The notes: generated by a model from the sequence alone, not told the origin. 64,000 nt of DNA from a bacterium (GCA_963693055.1 OY843751.1:4480001-4544000); one strand, 5' to 3'. Shown: positions 32,505 through 57,310, numbered from the stretch's first letter. Numbers and translations: made by a program.

Positions 32505-32520
32505 TGGCATGTAATTTGAA
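32505..32520 (+). promoter_or_regulatory. sigma54-like -24/-12 promoter (TTGA variant)
   Basis: TGGCAT-GTAAT-TTGAA upstream of the 1285-aa gene. Confidence 0.55.
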
Positions 32521-32725: not shown

Positions 32726-35700
32726 ATGGAAAAGAGACACACAATCTTTTTGTTTGCTGTAGCAATATTGATTGCTTTTGGAGGAAATGCATTTTCCGCC
32801 AAGACAGCACCTGTGTGGGTACCCTCTTCGATCGATACACAGTCCCTGCTCTCACAGGTTAGCCCATATAACAGTATGACAGATACACAATTACGCAGCT
32901 TGTTAACTACTGATGGAAAAACAAATTCAAAAAACATTGATATGGTTGACATTGTTTATGCGTACGCATTACTGTATCAGGCAACCGATAATATTGAATA
33001 TGCAAGAAAAGCAACTGTACTTTTAGACAGATATGCTGAAGTTTTTCCCAGTTGGCCCACAAATTACGGCAGCAGTCGTGGATATTGGATGTGGTGGGAT
33101 AACTGGTTCCACAGAGATCTCGGTTGGGTAGCAAAGCATTTAGCACAAGCTTTTGATATGACTCGTTACAGTTCTGTCTATAGTTCTTTTGCTTCTGGCA
33201 CTGAGACAGATATTTACAACCTTTTAAAAGAAATTGTCAAAGTTGACATGGGTTACACATTGTACATGTTTAACTCTTCAGGTTCAAGACCCATGGGATA
33301 TATCATTTTCGGTCGTGTTCTTGAAGACCCGGAATTGGTACACCTCGGTTATTGGTATTACAATAAAATGCTGCATCAGAGCTTTGGTCCTGATGGATAC
33401 TGGTATGAGGGTTGTTATGGATATGGCAATATTGCATATTGGGAACTGTCTAACGATGAATATAAATATTATCTTGATGGCTATTCTGATCCCGATGGCT
33501 ATACCCATGTTCCCTTTGAAGAAGGTTTAGACCCGGTTCGTCTCGATAATGTAGATTACGATGCTGAATTTGGCACTTTATTTTCAAGAATAGATGATAT
33601 TCTCTGGTCTACCGCGCTTCCTGATGGCAACTGGCCTATTATGAACGAAACTGAAGCCTTTCCGGATGGTTATAACGGAACCAACCCCAGAGATATTAAA
33701 GTAATTTTACCTGAATCCAGATTGTTTCATGGAGTAGGGCATGCAGCTATGGCCTATGGCAGTGGAAGCACCCAAACCCAGGCGCGCCTCGATTTTAGTC
33801 ACGCCGCAGCACACGTGCATGATGACGCACTACATCTTATCTATTACGCAAAAGGTGAAGAAGTTTTGGGTGGTACCGGATATGTTTATCAGGACCGCAC
33901 CTGGAACGCGAATGTTCGCAATCAGAACCTGGTAATTGTAAATAATTCTGATCAAAAAACAGGCTATTGGACAGATTATACAAATTCACCCTATATACCC
34001 GATGAAGGCAGACAGTCTGGTTTACCAACCACCAGACCGTTCCCCACATCAACCAATATGCATAATAATATCGTATTGTTTGAACCCGGTTACAAGGGTA
34101 ATAAAGCCATACAGATCACCGAAGTAGACGCTCTAGATGCCTATGACCACATTGGTGTAGACAGATACCAGCGCATGCTTGCCATGGTTAACATTAGTGG
34201 AAACGATACTTACCTGGTTGACTTTTTCCGCCTCAAAGGTGGTACACAGTATGACTGGGCATTGCATGGCGGTCATGTATCCACAATTGCTCCAGTTCAT
34301 CCGGGATACTCTGCCTCTACAAATCTCAGCATGAGCAGTACTTCCGGCTCATTTGGCAGCATCAGTTTCCAATCCAGTGCTACAACTGACAAAAACTGGT
34401 ACGGGGAATTCAATTACAATGGTGTAATCAATCGTTTTTCAATGATTGGTAATTCCAGTACAACCGTATACAAAGGCAGAGCGCCACAATCCGGAAAAAC
34501 CTCATCAGGCGATCAGGATTATATAGTAGCAAGAAGATCCGCCAGCTCTTCTGCCGATGAAAACTTTATGGTATTACACGAAACCTACACCGGCTCTCCA
34601 CGCGTTCAATCCATTGAGGAACTTACATTTGATGGCGATCCTGGTACTGCTATAGGAATGAAAATTACTCTCGACAATAAAACAATAGATTATATAATCC
34701 ATACGCTTGATGATGGCCCCAGTTATCCTGAACATATAGTTTCTCAGGAAAACAATCTTTCCATGACCGGTAAATTTGCCCATATTAGAGTTACCTCAGG
34801 TCAGGTTACCTGGATCCAACTGGTACAGGGTGGTTCAGCATCTTTTGGTTCTCAATCTATTGCTTCGGAAGATGGCGACTATTCCTGGCGCGGTACAGTC
34901 AACTCTGTAACCCGTATTGAAAATGGAAACAGTGAAAACGGTTTTGTTGTAAACAAATCTTTACCCTCTAATGGCGAATTAAACGGGAAAACCGTTATTG
35001 TCACCTGGGGTAATGGATGGAAATGGGGTTACAAGATCAAATCTGTAAATGGAAATAAAATTGTTACAGATGACGAACCAGGCTTTGATTATAGTGGTGG
35101 TTCAGTTAATATGAAATTTTTCCCGGCAGGCACTTATTCCGGGCCGGTAACATTTATCATTCCCGGAACTGCAATTCTTGATGAAAATGGAACGGTTACC
35201 ACAACAGAAGGTAATACTCAATTGTCAGATACTTCACCACCTTCAATTGCAAGTACAACGCCTGCAAAGGGTGCGGAAAATGTTCCAATGAACAGCCAGA
35301 TCACCATATCTTTTAACGAGCCGATGAACACTTCCAGTGTGGAATCTGCTGTTTCTATCTCTCCTTCAGTAGACCTGAACAAAAGCTGGAGCGGTAATGA
35401 CCTGATATTAACACCAGCCGCAGATCTGAACGAAACTACAGGCTATACTGTAACCATTGGTAGCAGTGCACAGGATGTTTCCGGTAATCCTTTGGATGGA
35501 AATGGAGATGGCACAGGTGGAGATGCTTTCCAGCTCAGTTTTACAACCAGTACACCACCTGAACCTGTCTATCTTTATATTGAAGCAGAAACAGCAACTG
35601 TTGTTGCACCTATGCAGGTACTTGCCGATGTAAACGCATCCGGAGGACAATACGTAGGTGTGCCTGAAGGTGGAGGCAATAACACTGGTACAGCCAGTAT

Positions 35701-36583
35701 CACATTCCAGATACCCTTTTCAGACACCTATTATTTATGGGGTTTGGTAAACGCTCCAACAAGTAGTGAAGATTCATATATTATCAGCATTGATGGTGAC
35801 AGAGACAGAATTTGGGACGTATTATACGAATCTCATCCTGCAGAATGGACATGGGACCAATTCTCAGAAAGAGGAACCGGTGCGTTCGATGCTCCACAAT
35901 ATGATCCTGCAACATTTCCTCTCTCGGCTGGCAGTTATACTTTGCAGATAACCAACCGTGAAGATGGTACATTGATCGATCAAATATTGATAACAAACGA
36001 TCCTGATTTTGATCCGTCAAACACCAATCAATCTGTGAGCTATGCCGTACCGGCAGGTTATAGCACTATTGCAGTTCCGCTCAAAAATGCAGATATTGTT
36101 TATGCAAGTGATCTTGCTTCTGCAATAGAAAATCAATTGGGTGAAAATACGGTAAACGGTTTATCGTATTGGAATTCTGATACACAGCGTTATGTCAGCT
36201 TTGCTCCACACCTCCCATCATTTTTACAGGGAACCAACTTTGAGATTCCATGTGGCATGCCAGTTCTGGCAAATACAACCATAAGCGGGATCTGGAACCT
36301 TGAAGGTGCAATGGAAGATATCAACTATTCTCTTACCGAAGGTTATAATTTGATTGCATTAGAGCTAGATAAAGCCGACATTACAAATGCCAGTGAACTT
36401 GCAGCTGCAATAGAAAGTCAGCTGGGTGAAAATACAGTTAATGGTTTATCATATTGGAACGCGGATACACAAAGATGGGTAAGCTTTGCCCCACATTTAC
36501 CATCGTTCCTGCAAGGCACAAATTTTTCAACAACTCCCGGCCAATCATTCTTGGTGAATGTTTTGGTTAGTGGACAATTCTAA
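32726..36583 (+). CDS. Secreted multidomain heparinase II/III-like (putative polysaccharide lyase) + Big_5 Ig + CBM-like domain + duplicated C-terminal domain
   Basis: Signal peptide; DGYWYEG, AHVHDDAL, YQRML, LVDFFR..GG..YDWALHG; DTSPPSI..TP..GA.NVP..SQITISFNEPM (Big_5); YIEAE CBM-like start; two ~95-aa C-terminal repeats. Confidence 0.75.
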   Translation: MEKRHTIFLFAVAILIAFGGNAFSAKTAPVWVPSSIDTQSLLSQVSPYNSMTDTQLRSLLTTDGKTNSKNIDMVDIVYAYALLYQATDNIEYARKATVLLDRYAEVFPSWPTNYGSSRGYWMWWDNWFHRDLGWVAKHLAQAFDMTRYSSVYSSFASGTETDIYNLLKEIVKVDMGYTLYMFNSSGSRPMGYIIFGRVLEDPELVHLGYWYYNKMLHQSFGPDGYWYEGCYGYGNIAYWELSNDEYKYYLDGYSDPDGYTHVPFEEGLDPVRLDNVDYDAEFGTLFSRIDDILWSTALPDGNWPIMNETEAFPDGYNGTNPRDIKVILPESRLFHGVGHAAMAYGSGSTQTQARLDFSHAAAHVHDDALHLIYYAKGEEVLGGTGYVYQDRTWNANVRNQNLVIVNNSDQKTGYWTDYTNSPYIPDEGRQSGLPTTRPFPTSTNMHNNIVLFEPGYKGNKAIQITEVDALDAYDHIGVDRYQRMLAMVNISGNDTYLVDFFRLKGGTQYDWALHGGHVSTIAPVHPGYSASTNLSMSSTSGSFGSISFQSSATTDKNWYGEFNYNGVINRFSMIGNSSTTVYKGRAPQSGKTSSGDQDYIVARRSASSSADENFMVLHETYTGSPRVQSIEELTFDGDPGTAIGMKITLDNKTIDYIIHTLDDGPSYPEHIVSQENNLSMTGKFAHIRVTSGQVTWIQLVQGGSASFGSQSIASEDGDYSWRGTVNSVTRIENGNSENGFVVNKSLPSNGELNGKTVIVTWGNGWKWGYKIKSVNGNKIVTDDEPGFDYSGGSVNMKFFPAGTYSGPVTFIIPGTAILDENGTVTTTEGNTQLSDTSPPSIASTTPAKGAENVPMNSQITISFNEPMNTSSVESAVSISPSVDLNKSWSGNDLILTPAADLNETTGYTVTIGSSAQDVSGNPLDGNGDGTGGDAFQLSFTTSTPPEPVYLYIEAETATVVAPMQVLADVNASGGQYVGVPEGGGNNTGTASITFQIPFSDTYYLWGLVNAPTSSEDSYIISIDGDRDRIWDVLYESHPAEWTWDQFSERGTGAFDAPQYDPATFPLSAGSYTLQITNREDGTLIDQILITNDPDFDPSNTNQSVSYAVPAGYSTIAVPLKNADIVYASDLASAIENQLGENTVNGLSYWNSDTQRYVSFAPHLPSFLQGTNFEIPCGMPVLANTTISGIWNLEGAMEDINYSLTEGYNLIALELDKADITNASELAAAIESQLGENTVNGLSYWNADTQRWVSFAPHLPSFLQGTNFSTTPGQSFLVNVLVSGQF
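36041..36580 (+). repeat. Intragenic tandem duplication, 285-nt period
   Basis: ASDLASAIENQLGENTVNGLSYWNSDTQRYVSFAPHLPSFLQGTNF versus ASELAAAIESQLGENTVNGLSYWNADTQRWVSFAPHLPSFLQGTNF (41/46 aa identical). Confidence 0.92.
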
Positions 36584-36600
36584 GTATCACCTCCCCGGTA

Positions 36601-36650
36601 GGGCCAGTCGCAAAGTCGTTTTTTTTCGATAGCGTGACTGGCCTTTTTTT
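36601..36650 (+). terminator. Intrinsic terminator
   Basis: GGCCAGTCGC...GTGACTGGCC stem followed by T7. Confidence 0.8.
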
Positions 36651-36778
36651 AAATCAAATTACAACTTTGTAATAACAAAACTGAAAACCTGGTATAATGT
36701 CCATTAAAATCGCTTGCAAACTGCAAATTAGCTTAAAAAACAACCCTAAAGTCAATAATTAGATACATTTACACCCAA

Positions 36779-36891
36779 TGTCCATAAAAATGGACAAATA
36801 ATTATATAAATTAAATAATATACCCCAAATTTCTAACAAATTGACCACAAAAATGGACTTTGCGTTTCAAATTTGTCCCTCACAATGGACA
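36779..36891. promoter_or_regulatory. Three 18-bp palindromic operators (candidate enhancer sites for a sigma54 activator)
   Basis: TGTCCATAAAAATGGACA (36779), TGACCACAAAAATGGACT (36842), TGTCCCTCACAATGGACA (36874). Confidence 0.65.
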
Positions 36892-37023
36892 AAAAATACA
36901 TCAAAATAGCCGCAAGCCCATTAAAAACAATATCTTAAGCCATATCAAGGCGCACACCCACACCCCCCCCATACAAACCCTTAAAAAACAACGTATTAAG
37001 ATATGCAATTTTTCTCATTTTTT

Positions 37024-37039
37024 TGGCACACAAGTTGAA
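37024..37039 (+). promoter_or_regulatory. sigma54-like -24/-12 promoter (TTGA variant)
   Basis: TGGCAC-ACAAG-TTGAA, 49 bp before the start and ~130-250 bp downstream of the palindromes. Confidence 0.65.
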
Positions 37040-37088
37040 TATAGAGATAGTGAAAGCAACAAGAACCATCAATTAAGAGGAAAATGAA

Positions 37089-38105
37089 ATGTTTGCATAC
37101 AATATGAAATCGACTAAAACCGGGCTCTTAATCAGCCTGATACTGCTTATCGTTATGAGTGGTTTTGCAAATGCACAAGTTACAAAAAATGTTTGGATGT
37201 ATATTTATAATTCAGATGGATCAGCTCCTTCTACTGGCGACATAAAAATCACTGCTTACCTGCAAAAAAATCCATCAGATAAACTGATCTCATCCAATAG
37301 CGAAAATGGTTGGATTTATGATATAAACACCAAATGGGGTTTCTACCCGAATCCTGACGATGCCGGCGCAACCAATGCAACCGTTGGTGACATTATGGTT
37401 ATAGAGTGTCTCAATATTAGCGGAAATCAGTTCGATGGCGAATTTAAGGCAATCTCTCAGGCTTTGAACGAAAACATGACTCAGCAATTTGGCTCAAATA
37501 ATTTTTCTCTTCCTGTTGAATTATCAAATTTTAAAGCAAATGTTGAACAGGGCAATGTGAACCTGGAATGGAGCACAGAATCTGAAACAATCAACCTTGG
37601 CTTTAACATTTATCGTAGTGAAGCTGGAAAAAACAATTATAAAAAAATCAATACCACACTGGTTCCAGGATCAGGCACAACTACAGAAAAACATTCTTAC
37701 ACTTATACTGACGAAACTGCTGAATATGGAAAAACTTATAGTTACAAAATCCAGAATGTAGACTCTGACGGCAGCCAAAAATTCTACTCTTCACTTTCAG
37801 TAGAAATTGATTCAGAGCAAGTACCAGCTAAATTTGATTTGTCACAAAATTACCCAAACCCTTTTAATCCGGTTACCACTATTAATTACAGTATCGCTGA
37901 AAACAGCGATGTCACCCTTACCATTTTCAACACTCTGGGTGAAGTTGTTAACGTACTTGTAAACGAAGCTCAAACAGCAGGTAACTATAACGTAACCTGG
38001 AACGGCCTTTCAAGTGCCGGTACCAAAGTAGCTTCAGGAATGTACTTTTACCAAATTCAGGCTGGTAACTTTAATCAAGTTAAAAAGATGATGTTATCCA
38101 AATAA
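37089..38105 (+). CDS. Secreted protein: uncharacterised ~110-aa N-domain + LPVEL Ig-like domain + FlgD-Ig/T9SS-type CTD
   Basis: Signal peptide ending ANA-Q; SLPVELSNF; FDLSQNYPNPFNPVTTI...VASGMYFY...KKMMLSK. Confidence 0.85.
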   Translation: MFAYNMKSTKTGLLISLILLIVMSGFANAQVTKNVWMYIYNSDGSAPSTGDIKITAYLQKNPSDKLISSNSENGWIYDINTKWGFYPNPDDAGATNATVGDIMVIECLNISGNQFDGEFKAISQALNENMTQQFGSNNFSLPVELSNFKANVEQGNVNLEWSTESETINLGFNIYRSEAGKNNYKKINTTLVPGSGTTTEKHSYTYTDETAEYGKTYSYKIQNVDSDGSQKFYSSLSVEIDSEQVPAKFDLSQNYPNPFNPVTTINYSIAENSDVTLTIFNTLGEVVNVLVNEAQTAGNYNVTWNGLSSAGTKVASGMYFYQIQAGNFNQVKKMMLSK

Positions 38106-38138
38106 TTTTGTATAAAAATATCTAATTTCATTCCTCTA

Positions 38139-38171
38139 CCTCTCACAATTGCAATTGTGAGGGGTTTTTTT
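38139..38171 (+). terminator. Intrinsic terminator
   Basis: CCTCTCACAAT-TGCA-ATTGTGAGGGG followed by T7. Confidence 0.8.
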
Positions 38172-38256
38172 ATTTATATCAAAAACTGCTTTTCTCTTTA
38201 TATTAATTATTATACATTTAGTTATATAGCTTTATTTACCAAATTTCAGGTTTGTT

Positions 38257-40761
38257 ATGATTAATATTAAATATATATCTGTTCTCGTATTATGCCTGTT
38301 ATTATTCTTCCCGCTTGCACAACTTTACTCTCAATCTCACCCTATATGGCAGCCTCCTGATGAATTTCAGGCAACTAGTCCGAATTTTGGTGACTATGTT
38401 GACCTCACTGAAACCGAACTGCGAAATTACATAGACACACGTGGAATACAAAATTCTTCCAATGCAGATATGGCGTATGTAGTTTACGATTTTGCGGCAC
38501 TCTATTATATAACCGGTAATATGGATTATGCATACAAATCTGCAGTATTGTTGGATGAATATGCTAATGTATTCTCTCAATGGCCCAGAAATATTGGCGT
38601 TACCCGTGGGTACTATATGTGGTGGGACGACTGGTATCACCGTGATTTGGGATGGGTAGCAAGGTATTTACCGCAGGGTTATGACATTATCGCAAACAGC
38701 GGCGTTTATGAACAAAACGCATCCATGAGTAAAACCAAAGTCCTTGAATTATTCAGAGATATTATAAATGTTGATTTACAATATCCATTATTCATGTTTA
38801 ATTCAGCCGGTACAAGACCTTTGGGATTAATGATATTTGCACGTGTATTGAATGATCCAAAACTGGCGCATTTGGCATACTGGTATTACAATAAAATGCT
38901 GCACGAAAGCTATACCTATGACGGATTTTGGTACGAAGGCGCTTATGATTATATGGCCATTATTACAAGGGCTCTTTTAAGCAGCAATTATAAAAAATAT
39001 TTCAATGGCTACACCGACCCTGCAGATTTCACCAGCCATGTTCCTTATGAAAAATGGGACACTCCACGGATAGAAAATTTAGATATGGATGAACGGTTCA
39101 AACTCATTCACAATCGGATGGACGAAACCTTGTGGAACTCTGCCATGCCCAACGCAACCTGGCCGGTAATTAACGAAACATCTCCCTACCCTATTGGATA
39201 CAATGGAGACAATCCCAATTATATTAAAAATATATTATCCGGTTCAAAACTCTATGGCGGTTTTGGTCATGCAGCTCTGGCATCCGGTAGCGGGCCTGAC
39301 CAAACACAAGCCAGGCTCGATTTTTCCCCCGCATTTAGCCATTACCATCGCGATGCACTACATCTCATCTATTTCAGCAAACAATACGAAACCGTTGGCG
39401 GAACTGGTTATGTTTACAGCAACAGGGTATGGAACCGATCAACATTAAACCAAAACCTTGTTGTTATTGATGGCACAGAACAGACAGCCGATTATTGGAC
39501 AGATTTTGTAGACTCGCCATACACACCAGAGAATGGCAGAACTGTAACTGAACTGGAGTCTGTTGATTTTCCTGAAACCAATATACACAACAATATTGTG
39601 CTTTTTGAGACTGAATTTCAAAACTTTAATAAAGTTCAAATTGTTGAAGTAGATGCTGCCAATGCCTATCAAAACATTCCAGCGAGAACATACCAACGCA
39701 TGCTCTCAATGATAGATATTGATGAAACCCATTCGTATCTGATAGATTTTTTCTATTCCAAGGGGGGTACACAGTACGACTGGATGCTGCATGGCGGACA
39801 TCATGATTATCAAATTGAACCTGCAAGCAACATGCATTCGGCATCTGGTAGTTTTGGCAGAATATCTTTAGAAAAGCAAACAAGTTCATTTTCGAAATGG
39901 CAGGCAGACCTGGTTTATGGTTCTGCAACGCATAGATTAACGTTGTTAAATAATGGACAAACAGAAATATTTACGGGGAGCGCACCAGGTTCACGCCAAA
40001 ACGAAGGCAGCCAACAATATTTAATTGCCAGAAAATCAGCTTCTGCAAACGAAATGACAGGCTATTACGCAGTTCACCAGACATTTGACCAGAGCAGTGC
40101 AATCCAGAGCATTAATCCGTTAGCACCTGTTATTAAAAAAGAGGGTGTATATGGTGTTCAAATAAATATGGCGGGTAAAACCGATTATATTATCCACTCG
40201 CTGAATCCCAATGTTGATACATTTAACCAATTTATAATTAATAACCAGAAACTAGAATTTAATGGCAAATTCCTGCACTTGAGATTTACAGGTAACAAAA
40301 TTGAATGGATATACAGTCTTGATGGTACGGTTATGTTTCCGGGGCACAACATCCCCTTCCTCAAAGCAAACGCTTTTCATGGTAATGTTTTAGATGTGCT
40401 TCGCAGGGAAGGTGGAGATTCTATGAACGCATTTGTGACAGATGTAGAATTGCCCAACAACGCATTGCTGGTAGGTAAAACCGTAATTGTTAAATGGGGT
40501 AATGGATGGACATGGGGATATAAAATTCAATCCGTAAATGGCAATGTAATAACTACGATAGAGGAACCGGGTTTTAACATTAATCAGGGTCAGGTAGAAA
40601 TGCATTACTGCCCTGCGGGAACTTATCCCGGACCGGTAACCTTTTACATTACAGGTTCCAGTTTATACAACAATGGGAAAATAACAACAACCAACCCCAT
40701 ATCGAGTGATACCACCCCGCCCAAAACGCCAAGCTTAAAATCTATAAATATTGTTGAATAA
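38257..40761 (+). CDS. Secreted heparinase II/III-like protein, paralogue of the catalytic part of 32726-36583
   Basis: Shared blocks MWWD.W.HRDLGWVA, MFNS.G.RP.G, YWYYNKMLH, QTQARLDFS, GGTGYVY, WGNGW.WGYKI.SVNGN, PAGTY.GPVTF. Confidence 0.78.
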   Translation: MINIKYISVLVLCLLLFFPLAQLYSQSHPIWQPPDEFQATSPNFGDYVDLTETELRNYIDTRGIQNSSNADMAYVVYDFAALYYITGNMDYAYKSAVLLDEYANVFSQWPRNIGVTRGYYMWWDDWYHRDLGWVARYLPQGYDIIANSGVYEQNASMSKTKVLELFRDIINVDLQYPLFMFNSAGTRPLGLMIFARVLNDPKLAHLAYWYYNKMLHESYTYDGFWYEGAYDYMAIITRALLSSNYKKYFNGYTDPADFTSHVPYEKWDTPRIENLDMDERFKLIHNRMDETLWNSAMPNATWPVINETSPYPIGYNGDNPNYIKNILSGSKLYGGFGHAALASGSGPDQTQARLDFSPAFSHYHRDALHLIYFSKQYETVGGTGYVYSNRVWNRSTLNQNLVVIDGTEQTADYWTDFVDSPYTPENGRTVTELESVDFPETNIHNNIVLFETEFQNFNKVQIVEVDAANAYQNIPARTYQRMLSMIDIDETHSYLIDFFYSKGGTQYDWMLHGGHHDYQIEPASNMHSASGSFGRISLEKQTSSFSKWQADLVYGSATHRLTLLNNGQTEIFTGSAPGSRQNEGSQQYLIARKSASANEMTGYYAVHQTFDQSSAIQSINPLAPVIKKEGVYGVQINMAGKTDYIIHSLNPNVDTFNQFIINNQKLEFNGKFLHLRFTGNKIEWIYSLDGTVMFPGHNIPFLKANAFHGNVLDVLRREGGDSMNAFVTDVELPNNALLVGKTVIVKWGNGWTWGYKIQSVNGNVITTIEEPGFNINQGQVEMHYCPAGTYPGPVTFYITGSSLYNNGKITTTNPISSDTTPPKTPSLKSINIVE

Positions 40762-40795
40762 AAAAAAGCCCGGTCTTTGAACCGGGCTTTTTTTT
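40760..40795. terminator. Bidirectional intrinsic terminator
   Basis: A8-GCCCGGT-CTTTGA-ACCGGGC-T8 between convergent genes. Confidence 0.9.
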
Positions 40796-41810
40796 ATTTC
40801 GTATAAATCATTTTTCTAACCTGGGTAACCTGATTGGTGTCTAGCTTGTAAAAATACAAGCCGGCAGAAACAGAGTTCCCCATACCGTCTTTTCCATCCC
40901 ACATGTAGGAATAATATCCAGTAGACTGTTGCTCATTGGCAAGTTGAATAACCAGATCACCAATTGCATTGTAAACACTCAACCTTACGTGAGAATCAGC
41001 ACCCAATCTGTAACGGATCTGGGTTGATGGATTAAAGGGATTGGGGAAATTTTGCATCAGTTCATGTTTATCAGGAGTCGCATTTGCATCCACAGTAACA
41101 GAAATAGATTGATGTTTGTATTTCTGTCCATTAATATCAACAGATTCCAAACTGTATGTATAACTCTCGCCTGCTTTTACATTTGTATCGATATATTCAT
41201 AAGAATGACTGCTGGTACTGGTACCTGCCCCATCTATGATAATGGCATTCAATTGAAATTCACTTTGCCCTGAAATACTTTTGTAAATATTAAACCCAAG
41301 ATTGTTTAATTCTGCCTGGGTTGTCCAGTTAAGAACAACCTGATTGGATTGTATTTTAGCCTGAAAAGATGACAGTTCAACTGGCAAAGAAAAGTCACTG
41401 GGACCAAATTGCTGAGATGATCCACCACCAACAATAAAATCACGAATTTGACCACTTTCACCAAAAAAAGGACTTTCTGAATTTGTATTAAGAAACTCTA
41501 CTATAATATAATCACCCGGGTTCGCATTGGTAGAACCACCCGAACCATCAGAATAATATATCCACCCAGCTTCATATGTCAGCTCAAAACCCCATAAACT
41601 TGCATCTCCATTTGAAAAAACATATGTGTTGCTTGGATTTTTCTCAAGATATGCAGTAATAGTTATATCACCTGTTGCTGGCGCAGAATCATCAGAATTA
41701 TAAACATTCCCATATATTGTATAAGGTACCTGGGCTAATGCCAAAGTAGTGAAACCAATAAATAACAACAGAAAAATATTTATTAAAGTTTTGTAACCAA
41801 ATTTCATCAC
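40794..41810 (-). CDS. Secreted protein, paralogue of 37089-38105 (N-domain + LPVEL Ig + FlgD-Ig CTD)
   Basis: YNSDDSAPATGDITITAYLEKNPS versus YNSDGSAPSTGDIKITAYLQKNPS; FSLPVELSSF; QNFPNPFNPSTQI...RKMIYTK. Confidence 0.85.
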   Translation of the reverse strand: MMKFGYKTLINIFLLLFIGFTTLALAQVPYTIYGNVYNSDDSAPATGDITITAYLEKNPSNTYVFSNGDASLWGFELTYEAGWIYYSDGSGGSTNANPGDYIIVEFLNTNSESPFFGESGQIRDFIVGGGSSQQFGPSDFSLPVELSSFQAKIQSNQVVLNWTTQAELNNLGFNIYKSISGQSEFQLNAIIIDGAGTSTSSHSYEYIDTNVKAGESYTYSLESVDINGQKYKHQSISVTVDANATPDKHELMQNFPNPFNPSTQIRYRLGADSHVRLSVYNAIGDLVIQLANEQQSTGYYSYMWDGKDGMGNSVSAGLYFYKLDTNQVTQVRKMIYTK

Positions 41811-41863: not shown

Positions 41864-41879
41864 ATCAAATATTATGCCG
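41864..41879 (-). promoter_or_regulatory. sigma54-like -24/-12 promoter (TTGA variant)
   Basis: Minus strand CGGCAT-AATAT-TTGAT, 53 bp before the start of 40794-41810. Confidence 0.55.
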
Positions 41880-55486: not shown

Positions 55487-57310
55487 CTATTTTATATACA
55501 ATAATGATCTGGTCTGAACTGATTCATCAAATTCTAGTACAGCAAAAAACGTACCGCTTGACACAGTTTTGCCAAACACATTTGTGCCATCCCACTGACT
55601 GCTATAAAAGCCAGCAGCCTGCGTTTCTTTTACCAACTGCTTGACCAATTTTCCATTGATATTAAAAATAGACAAACTGACGCTTCCGTTATGAGGTAAA
55701 TAATAAGACAGAACAGTATTCGAGTTGAATGGATTGGGGTAATTGGGGTGTAAAATAAATTTGTCTGCTAATTTCACATCTGCAGTAAGTACATTTGAAA
55801 AACGGGTATTTCCATTTTTCTCATATAGTTTTAAACGATACTCCAGAGTACCATCTGAATTGACTTGATCGTCAGTATATTCATAGGTTTGCTTTCCCGA
55901 AACAACCTGAATATATTGTATTTTAGTAAAATCACTGTTAATATCTTTACGCTGTAATTCAAAACCCAGATAATTATTTTCTTTTTCAACAGTCCAGCGT
56001 AACGCGGGTTTGGAATCAAACATTTGAATTTCAAACGCTACAGCATCAATGTCTGTTGTTGGATCGTTGATGATCATCAAATTTTCATCCAGTGTACCTA
56101 TGCCCTGCTGTTGACAATGTTCAAGATATTGACGCACAGCACTTTCAGGATCATCTACGTTCATTGCTTCTTTATGAAGGTCATTATTCCTTACAGCCGC
56201 AGGATACAGGATATATTTTGTTGCGTAATAATCCAGAGCTACAGGATCGGAGCTTGCGAACAAGTAACCAGCTTGTTCTGCTTTATCAATATCTTCCCTG
56301 CTGCCCCAACCGATCCATTCTGCAGTGGTAAAATGCATATCAGCCTTGCGTATAGTCCGAATAAATGTACCAATAGCATCACCTAATACACCGGGTATGG
56401 GCCCAACAAGGTTTTCGTTAAATGCAAAAGCATGAAAGTTATAATAGTCATCTACCAGTTTTCCATTTTCAGGATTACTTCCCCAAGACAGGTCAACAAC
56501 ACCCATGTAATTCTTGACTGCACTGGTTGTACCTACATAATAGCTGTGACGACACAAACCGGAAAAAATGATAAATTTCAGAGGTTTATCAGAAAGGTAC
56601 TGACCATTTTCCCATACACCATTTTTCAAATCTATAGTAAGACCGCTATATGTAGACTTGAAAACAGGATAGGTCATAATCGTTTCGCGATAATCATCAG
56701 CATTTTCTGCATTATTGGAAACGACATTATCTTCTTCAAAGACATACCCTTCTCCATCTTCAGGGCCATAAATACGCTGACCGCCGTCTTCATAAGAATC
56801 ATTCCAGATAAAGCGGGAAACATTATCATGGCCTTCCGCCTGAATCAATGCTAACAGGTCATTAAGATTTTTAACAACAGGAATGTTGGAATTGATTAAA
56901 AACGGCTCTGCCCAGGCACCTTTATCCTGAGCGGGCCACCGGTGGTTATTGTCTCCCAGAATAATTTCACCATTGAACCCTGGTATATCCAGTATTTTAT
57001 CAATAAATGTTTTTATTGAAGCCAGATTACCTGATCCCTGGTTTATGCGTTGAGCATTGGTTTTAATAACAACAACATCATTGGGTCCAATAAAATTTTC
57101 AATACCACCCATCAGATCAAGGAGATTACTCATATTGTCAGTTGGACCGTTACCATTTGTCATATATATACGAGAATACTCGTCCTCGACAGGTTTTGCC
57201 CAGGTGCGAGTGCCAGCCATTGATGCCGCAATCAAAGCTCCGGCGCCCTGGCCTGTATTTTTTATAAATCTTCGTCTAGAAATATTCTTTTTCATAGTTC
57301 CCATAACCAT
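55487..57310 (-). CDS. DUF362-family protein with Tat signal and C-terminal FlgD-Ig/T9SS-type CTD
   Basis: SRRRFIK; MGGIENFIGPNDVVVIKTN; TSAVKNYMG; ASSDPVALD; NYPNPFNSNT..VSSGTFF. Confidence 0.75.
   Translation of the reverse strand: MVMGTMKKNISRRRFIKNTGQGAGALIAASMAGTRTWAKPVEDEYSRIYMTNGNGPTDNMSNLLDLMGGIENFIGPNDVVVIKTNAQRINQGSGNLASIKTFIDKILDIPGFNGEIILGDNNHRWPAQDKGAWAEPFLINSNIPVVKNLNDLLALIQAEGHDNVSRFIWNDSYEDGGQRIYGPEDGEGYVFEEDNVVSNNAENADDYRETIMTYPVFKSTYSGLTIDLKNGVWENGQYLSDKPLKFIIFSGLCRHSYYVGTTSAVKNYMGVVDLSWGSNPENGKLVDDYYNFHAFAFNENLVGPIPGVLGDAIGTFIRTIRKADMHFTTAEWIGWGSREDIDKAEQAGYLFASSDPVALDYYATKYILYPAAVRNNDLHKEAMNVDDPESAVRQYLEHCQQQGIGTLDENLMIINDPTTDIDAVAFEIQMFDSKPALRWTVEKENNYLGFELQRKDINSDFTKIQYIQVVSGKQTYEYTDDQVNSDGTLEYRLKLYEKNGNTRFSNVLTADVKLADKFILHPNYPNPFNSNTVLSYYLPHNGSVSLSIFNINGKLVKQLVKETQAAGFYSSQWDGTNVFGKTVSSGTFFAVLEFDESVQTRSLLYIK

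Follow-up and report, generated by a model that had tools for sequence, protein, structure and literature searches.

A predicted docking-domain pair that may tether a lyase-like enzyme to a type IX secretion adaptor in a KSB1 bacterium

In cellulosomes, enzymes are assembled through cohesin-dockerin pairs, in which the dockerin is a duplicated tag, often C-terminal on the enzyme, and anchoring is provided by scaffoldins of the SdbA/OlpB type. Another route to the cell surface has been described in Bacteroidota, where type IX secretion system (T9SS) cargo is exported and attached by way of SprA, PorV and PorU, as set out in the excerpted text of PMC10202324. Here we analysed four genes, named E1, S1, E2 and S2, in a 64,000-nucleotide stretch of bacterial DNA (the window; GCA_963693055.1 OY843751.1:4480001-4544000). 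The window is part of a complete 6.54-Mb genome (G000), and the proteins of its close relatives carry the database name 'candidate division KSB1'. Comparative analysis and a structure model made it fairly probable that the C-terminal D domain of E1 is a docking tag, and that the N domain of S1 is the socket for it on a surface anchor. D and N are probably undescribed, and probably form a docking pair that works like a dockerin with an anchoring cohesin while being built of unrelated domains. No description of the pair was found in the literature searched, where unnamed domains are hard to find by word, and the term 'secretion system' had zero occurrences in the excerpted text of the KSB1 phylum paper (PMC9012183).

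The D and N domains in the locus and in other genomes

E1 (32726-36583, plus strand; 1285 aa) consisted of a signal peptide, a PL17/heparinase II-III-like lyase module (residues ~25-830), a Big_5 domain (835-941) that a preliminary description of this DNA had overlooked, and a probable, weakly matching domain resembling a carbohydrate-binding module (CBM; ~950-1097). It ended in D (36032..36580, plus strand; residues ~1103-1285), two ~90-aa alpha/beta repeats predicted to be a docking tag. S1 (37089-38105, plus strand; 338 aa), the predicted surface anchor for E1, was made up of a signal peptide, the ~110-aa N domain (37176..37508, plus strand; residues 30-140), an LPVEL Ig-like spacer and a type A-like T9SS C-terminal domain (CTD). 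E2 (38257-40761, plus strand; 834 aa) was a paralogue of the E1 lyase module (46% identity over 820 aa) with neither D nor CTD, and S2 (40794-41810; 338 aa; N domain at 41388-41732), a second adaptor, was a paralogue of S1 with the same make-up (41% identity over 333 aa). S2 is convergent with E2 and lies on the minus strand, which the preliminary description did not state; its four reading frames, their lengths, their grouping into two paralogous pairs and the duplicated C-terminal domain of E1 were all recovered. CTDs were confined to the adaptors, as had been claimed: PF13860 (FlgD_ig) matched S1 (E 1e-10) and S2 (E 2e-9), TIGR04183 (Por_Secre_tail) exceeded its cut-off in both, and scans with these two models found no CTD in E1 or E2. 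The signal peptides of S1 and S2 were identified by inspection.

D recurred in four other proteins of this genome, in each of which it led through a short linker to a domain of ~95 aa and then a CTD. The domain after D proved to be a distant homologue of the N domain of S1 and S2 (hhalign 93%, and 95% with deeper alignments), and hhalign gave 99.5% between the N of S1 and that of other adaptors. A hidden Markov model (HMM) constructed from the adaptors of other genomes alone found S1 (E 5e-12) and S2 (E 1e-11). Single-sequence phmmer searches gave no link between the adaptor type and the fused type of N, and an HMM of fused domains only reached S2 at E 0.27; the link therefore rests on profile-profile comparison and on profiles of intermediate adaptors. 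Since the fused domain after D is homologous to the N of S1 and S2, E1 and S1 appear to divide between two genes what is found elsewhere in one chain.

We then examined how D and N were distributed. Among 145 KSB1 genomes, D was present in 57 (113 matches) and N in 57, with both in 55, so that all but two of the D-positive genomes had N. From the 113 matches 82 distinct sequences were examined, comprising 49 fused D-N proteins, 31 with terminal D, one cut sequence and one other. Terminal-D proteins lacked a CTD, and in 27 of 31 cases, including five E1/S1 pairs, the next gene downstream encoded a signal peptide, N and a CTD. Of the other four, three came just behind a clustered N+CTD gene, and the weak match L060 had no such gene. 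Sequence clustering divided the partnered cargoes into at least five groups unrelated to one another, represented by the E1 lyase, one family each of ~1500 aa and ~640 aa, a subtilase and an Ig-repeat protein; one further partnered cargo gene was nested among fused proteins. Ten further D matches had N in a separate open reading frame (ORF) directly downstream, as judged from coordinates alone, and two more at contig ends were undecidable; the ten are probably orthologous to the ~1500-aa family and hence not independent origins. A quick tree of 79 D sequences needed three changes between fused and split states, two of them forced. Clustering at 50% identity gave ~1,760 D-containing clusters, and the best 150 of these 1,760 representatives comprised 96 D-N-CTD proteins, 36 ending in D, three D-N proteins without CTD (one truncated) and 15 others. 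The co-occurrence and fusion check proposed in the preliminary description thus came out in favour of a link between N and CTD-less enzymes.

The linkers of fused D-N proteins measured 15-30 aa, with Lys within the first 12 residues in 41/48. The spacer between N and the CTD was 101-117 aa in 22/22 adaptors, S1 and S2 alike, versus 1-16 aa in 46/46 measurable fusions, and the adaptors are therefore an architecture of their own and not fresh stubs of gene fission. This genome held five D and nine N domains, an imbalance that is accommodated if each D offers two sites, as proposed below. The S2 orthologue in G001 (L015:14158-14976) was 272 aa long and lost its frame within the CTD, through a frameshift or an assembly error.

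Two further arrangements were observed in KSB1. The first (L001, G000:C1:4726000-4745000) held a run of three fused D-N-CTD proteins and, after them, a 327-aa protein with two N domains and a CTD, together with a 1793-aa Flg_new_2/ZU5 protein that opened with N; it is a candidate multi-protein assembly, and similar clusters occurred in G014, G017, G059 and G118. The second (L046-L059) was the conserved ~1500-aa secreted protein ending in D, which was found in several KSB1 families and had an N-LPVEL-CTD adaptor after it in every case; the members scanned had no Pfam or NCBIfam match.

With a profile of proteins that open with D, 15 loci outside KSB1 were fetched. An N-starting gene lay directly upstream of the N-terminal-D gene in 9/15 (two identical, and one, L087, with an assembly gap), while the other six comprised one reversed cis fusion, one with N elsewhere in the genome, three cut loci and one spurious match. 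The named records belonged to Nitrospirota, Desulfobacteraceae and one 'Pseudomonadota', and a reversed fusion was also found in a Zixibacteria protein. Among 251 genomes of Desulfobacteria, the class of G152, D occurred in six and N in three, and 5/5 N matches lay within D-containing ORFs. Four such ORFs were read out as a signal peptide, N, an acidic linker, a GG..CF motif, a hydrophobic segment, basic residues, a second signal-like segment, D and the cargo; their internal CF-type motifs scored 14.8, under the CFI-box cut-off, or gave no match. From this order we infer that the Desulfobacteria polyprotein may be cleaved, which would tether N and release D with its cargo. In G337, the gene after one with terminal D encoded a weak-N protein (E 0.0016) ending in a CFI-box motif; the motif scored 15.6 bits on the whole protein and 19.2 on its C-terminal fragment, against a cut-off of 15.9. 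Taken with the CTD arrangement of KSB1, these CFI-box-type arrangements place N repeatedly on the anchor-bearing chain, whatever anchor the lineage uses.

Other observations were made at these distant loci. In L089:5302-7869, L121, L122 and L123, anchor and cargo apparently lay within one Desulfobacteria ORF, the CFI-box-like motif being internal. Across L087-L099, D opened large PKD-rich proteins beside RHS/YD-repeat-like genes, and the N protein encoded upstream ended, in L096 and L099, in sequence that itself resembled a divergent D repeat. An N-domain protein of G149 (L103:6787-7782) ended, on inspection, in a dockerin-like motif, a hint that combinations of D-N with cohesin-dockerin modules are possible.

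Structure models and competing explanations

The packing of N on D was predicted from a model of a natural fusion. For a natural fragment spanning D, linker and N, AlphaFold with 47 sequences reached a predicted local distance difference test (pLDDT) of 91.7 and a predicted template modelling score (pTM) of 0.84, with the linker at low confidence. The pTM ceiling calculated for an undocked N was 0.61-0.65, and because the observed score exceeded it, the model was taken to dock N on D. The D of E1 alone was modelled with a pLDDT of 97, its ~90-aa repeat unit being mostly beta. Foldseek returned no match for this fold at E 0.001, and the best VIA match (Z 4.4) was to RCK C-lobe-like chains, leaving no clear match in the PDB; neither cohesin nor dockerin entries appeared among the matches listed for D, which does not exclude a likeness to them. 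N in the fused model was a transthyretin-like beta-sandwich, within the range of common folds; the fold matches listed for N were led by CBM41 and transthyretin-like sandwiches with Z under 8, and unlisted families may still fit. Sequence profile searches of the PDB with D and N returned nothing under E 0.03, and no Pfam match recurred in D or N (74 members each). The ESM Atlas returned unnamed clusters only, with scores of 0.79 (N) and 0.89 (D), which serve as leads only. Within E1-family proteins the two repeats were 60% identical, with a nearly identical stretch of ~35 residues, compared to 27-35% between families, which is compatible with two sites that are equivalent and specific to the family, or with gene conversion.

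These data allowed a mechanism to be proposed. Both E1 and S1 would enter the periplasm by Sec, and S1 would be exported and attached through its CTD by the SprA/PorV/PorU route. E1 would dock on S1, probably already in the periplasm, and be carried with it across the outer membrane, leaving the CTD-less lyase held at the cell surface by S1. The two similar repeats may be two sites, the other of which could be filled by S2 or a second S1; the partner of S2 is possibly the second repeat of E1. The lyase would probably act on a uronate-type polysaccharide from the adjacent Wzx/Wzy cluster. Riding with S1 is the simplest reading of how E1 would cross the outer membrane, although the genome also has secretins that score under the GspD cut-off; the evidence bears more on anchoring than on export. 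A wider version of this proposal, which we put forward tentatively and hold to be rather doubtful as a whole, is that D-N is a cross-phylum docking system, possibly with a new fold, by which CTD-less enzymes of KSB1 ride a T9SS-like translocon in trans on a CTD adaptor, and that two sites per tag cross-link anchors and cargoes into multi-enzyme assemblies, a non-homologous analogue of the cellulosome in diderms.

Several results weighed against D as tag and N as socket. What was modelled as docked is a fused paralogue and not E1 with S1, and AlphaFold can pack domains that are tethered. Inter-domain covariation on 168 natural pairs was not above that of three shuffles (maximum z 5.2 versus 5.1-5.8), in an alignment that was underpowered at an effective sequence number of 140. 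The closest folds to N included CBM41 (Z 7.7, root mean square deviation 2.5, 83 aligned residues, 7% identity), and the similarity of the repeats could stem from gene conversion. Lone N+CTD genes without an adjacent D partner were found in G131, G132 and others, D was present without a detected N in G098, G063, G164 and G170 (partly fragmented), and several representatives were short and D-only. In G017, the orthologues of S1 and S2 face each other at this site without any remnant of E1 or E2; the E1 of that genome lies elsewhere, beside another S1-type neighbour. Related genomes do not count as independent, and genomes used in building A4 were afterwards among those counted. Finally, GldM and GldN, of the GldLM motor and the GldKN ring, were not found with the TIGR models, which matched no control genome either.

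The alternatives differ in what they make of these results. It is conceivable, but improbable, that D and N bind and that S1 is only a secretion carrier, which would ferry E1 through SprA, with both proteins then released and no lasting scaffold formed. The signal peptides and missing CTDs of terminal-D proteins and the N+CTD neighbour in 27/31 would suit such a role, as would the linkers of the fused proteins, which may be cleavable because of their early Lys; T9SS substrates do not all stay anchored, according to the excerpted text of PMC10202324. However, N in Desulfobacteria sits on a CFI-box-type motif and a hydrophobic segment, an anchor-like tail and no export signal, and N-bearing CTD proteins also adjoin fused proteins that need no carrier. 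The covariation result and the fold that N shares with CBM41 and also with CBM20 would instead suit two domains in one pathway that never touch, N being for example a new CBM, both domains binding the same surface glycan or a third partner, and S1 and S2 being stand-alone surface proteins that bind extracellular polysaccharide. The persistence of S1 and S2 at the end of the polysaccharide cluster where E1 and E2 are absent points the same way. We give this explanation a similarly small chance, since the fusion model is docked and the D-N link is kept where the cargo is unrelated and in phyla whose surfaces differ. Moreover, N matched no catalytic family, and no described CBM family beyond weak Cbm74 matches in 2/74 members (E 0.024), in line with the preliminary description, which had made recognition of N as a known CBM or catalytic module a test of its idea.

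Very unlikely, in our judgement, is that a D-N-CTD cassette broke up by gene fission or shuffling and left the split pairs as relics, with E1 and E2 being ordinary periplasmic lyases that serve polysaccharide synthesis and their adjacency to the adaptors having no mechanistic meaning. E2, kept in four genomes despite having neither D nor CTD, would fit this, as would the adjoining Wzx/Wzy cluster with a heparinase II/III protein of its own. But the adaptors possess a signal peptide, a promoter and an Ig-like spacer of their own, and conservation of the split state extends over several families of KSB1 and several types of cargo, the state having arisen more than once or been later fused. The proposal of D as a docking tag and N as its socket thus remained the one we favoured. 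The adaptor or scaffold idea of the preliminary description held up for the D of E1 with N, through cis fusions, split pairs with unrelated cargo and the docked fusion model, and was not supported for the tail of E2 with S2.

Enzymes, export machinery, promoters and surroundings

The label 'heparinase II/III-like' given to E1 and E2 was sustained in part. PF07940 matched E2 only under its cut-off (E 0.005), and the Pfam scan of E1 gave no heparinase II/III match. A profile of eight enzyme orthologues did match the PL17 alginate lyase AlgL17 (PDB 9irq; E 1.5e-7), and the label is therefore fair but remote, E1 and E2 appearing from sequence comparison to be homologous to the PL17/heparinase II-III clan. 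The match was partial, covering ~165/806 positions in the helical domain. Asn and Tyr motifs aligned with PL17 and an HxHxD motif was invariant across the eight orthologues, while the His that follows Asn in the PL17 motif was replaced.

E2 ended, as described before, in a lone tail of 17 aa with a PPxxP pattern (40708-40758), which aligned with the linker opening the Big_5 domain of E1 and presumably resembles the first strand of an FN3-type domain. Similar tails end the E2 homologues P0157, P0161, P0162 and P0178, and two unrelated secreted proteins of this genome also end in tails like that of E2. As a genome-wide C-terminal signal the tail was not supported: one pattern found five tails versus 1.7 expected, and a second found seven versus 5.6 expected, with E2 itself escaping the latter. 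An obligate E2-S2 pair was likewise rejected, as S2 and S1 persist at the G017 site without E2 or E1. Because E2 lacks D, the G017 site lacks E2 and the tails were not clearly enriched, the E2-S2 half of the first reading is unsupported, and E2 is likely a D-less paralogue that the D-N system does not serve.

SprA, PorU and PorV exceeded their cut-offs in the genome, with 22 genes of the PorV family above the threshold and two for PorU, and about 185 CTD proteins are encoded there. With their CTDs and these genes, S1 and S2 look like ordinary T9SS type A cargo, and the translocon is possibly T9SS-like with a different motor or none.

A sigma54-like motif, YGGCAY-N5-TTGA, was found upstream of E1 (32505..32519, plus strand; TGGCAT-N5-TTGA, with a non-canonical -12 element), S1 (37024..37038, plus strand) and S2 (41865..41879, minus strand) and was not found before E2, in agreement with the earlier claim that three of the four genes share it. 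It was conserved before the orthologues of E1 (4/4), S1 (4/4) and S2 (2/2) and absent before those of E2 (0/3); two of all these occurrences read TTGT. The motif was spacing-specific genome-wide, with 25/93 sites intergenic against an intergenic fraction of 11%, compared to 5/62 and 8/79 in spacing controls, and it was not special to this locus: 17 of the 20 genes that carry it are others. RpoN is encoded in the genome. The canonical sigma54 -12 element is GC, where the locus motif has GA, and the canonical pattern TGGCAC-N5-TTGC occurred at chance level in the window. Genome-wide, sites with GA or GT at -12 (20 and 16 genes) were enriched upstream of genes about as strongly as those with GC (26 genes), which suggests a relaxed -12 preference of RpoN in this genome.

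A large polysaccharide cluster, with glycosyltransferases, Wzy_C, flippase genes and one conventional heparinase II/III protein, has the four genes at its 3' end. A terminator scan found a terminator-like hairpin between S1 and E2 (38138..38165, plus strand). A second hairpin, flanked by A and T runs between the convergent E2 and S2 (40768..40787), was seen by inspection and not flagged by the scan; it is a probable two-way terminator for both genes. Within the polysaccharide cluster, window positions 55487-57310 encode a Tat-type-looking, DUF362-like protein with a T9SS-type CTD.

Relation to described systems

If D and N bind, they would be a second, unrelated solution to the cohesin-dockerin problem, spread across KSB1 and some Nitrospirota and Desulfobacteria. 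The CTD by itself would then not suffice to predict T9SS substrates, because export or display in trans would be open to enzymes that lack one, and two small domains could give an orthogonal tag for enzyme display.

Among enzymes, the nearest relative, AlgL17, shares the helical-domain profile and the aligned Asn and Tyr motifs with E1 and E2, and differs in the replaced His and in the small part of its length that could be matched. S1 and S2 resemble T9SS type A cargo attached by the PorU sortase, in the excerpted text of PMC10202324, in carrying a CTD in a genome with SprA, PorU and PorV. Unlike that cargo, they have no recognisable activity of their own and would serve a separate, CTD-less enzyme. 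SprB and SprF, described in the same excerpt, likewise cluster a type B CTD cargo gene with a dedicated partner for surface delivery; however, SprF/PorP is a PorV-like beta-barrel and SprB keeps its CTD, whereas in the D-N system the cargo lacks a CTD and its partner is a soluble protein that bears one.

The closest likeness was to the cohesin-dockerin system. Both combine a duplicated-sequence tag with a beta-sandwich module on a surface-anchored protein, and in both the modules are shuffled between cargoes that are unrelated, and are found in cis as well as in trans. By its sequence, however, D is not a dockerin: its repeats are ~90 aa and alpha/beta, whereas the dockerin is a duplicated Ca-loop/helix of ~22 aa, and no dockerin match appeared in E1 or among the 25 of 34 Pfam families listed for 74 D members. 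N had no cohesin match in Pfam in 74 members. The D-N anchor is a T9SS CTD or a CFI-box-type tail in a diderm cell, and the binding of D to N, which would complete the parallel, is predicted from the model.

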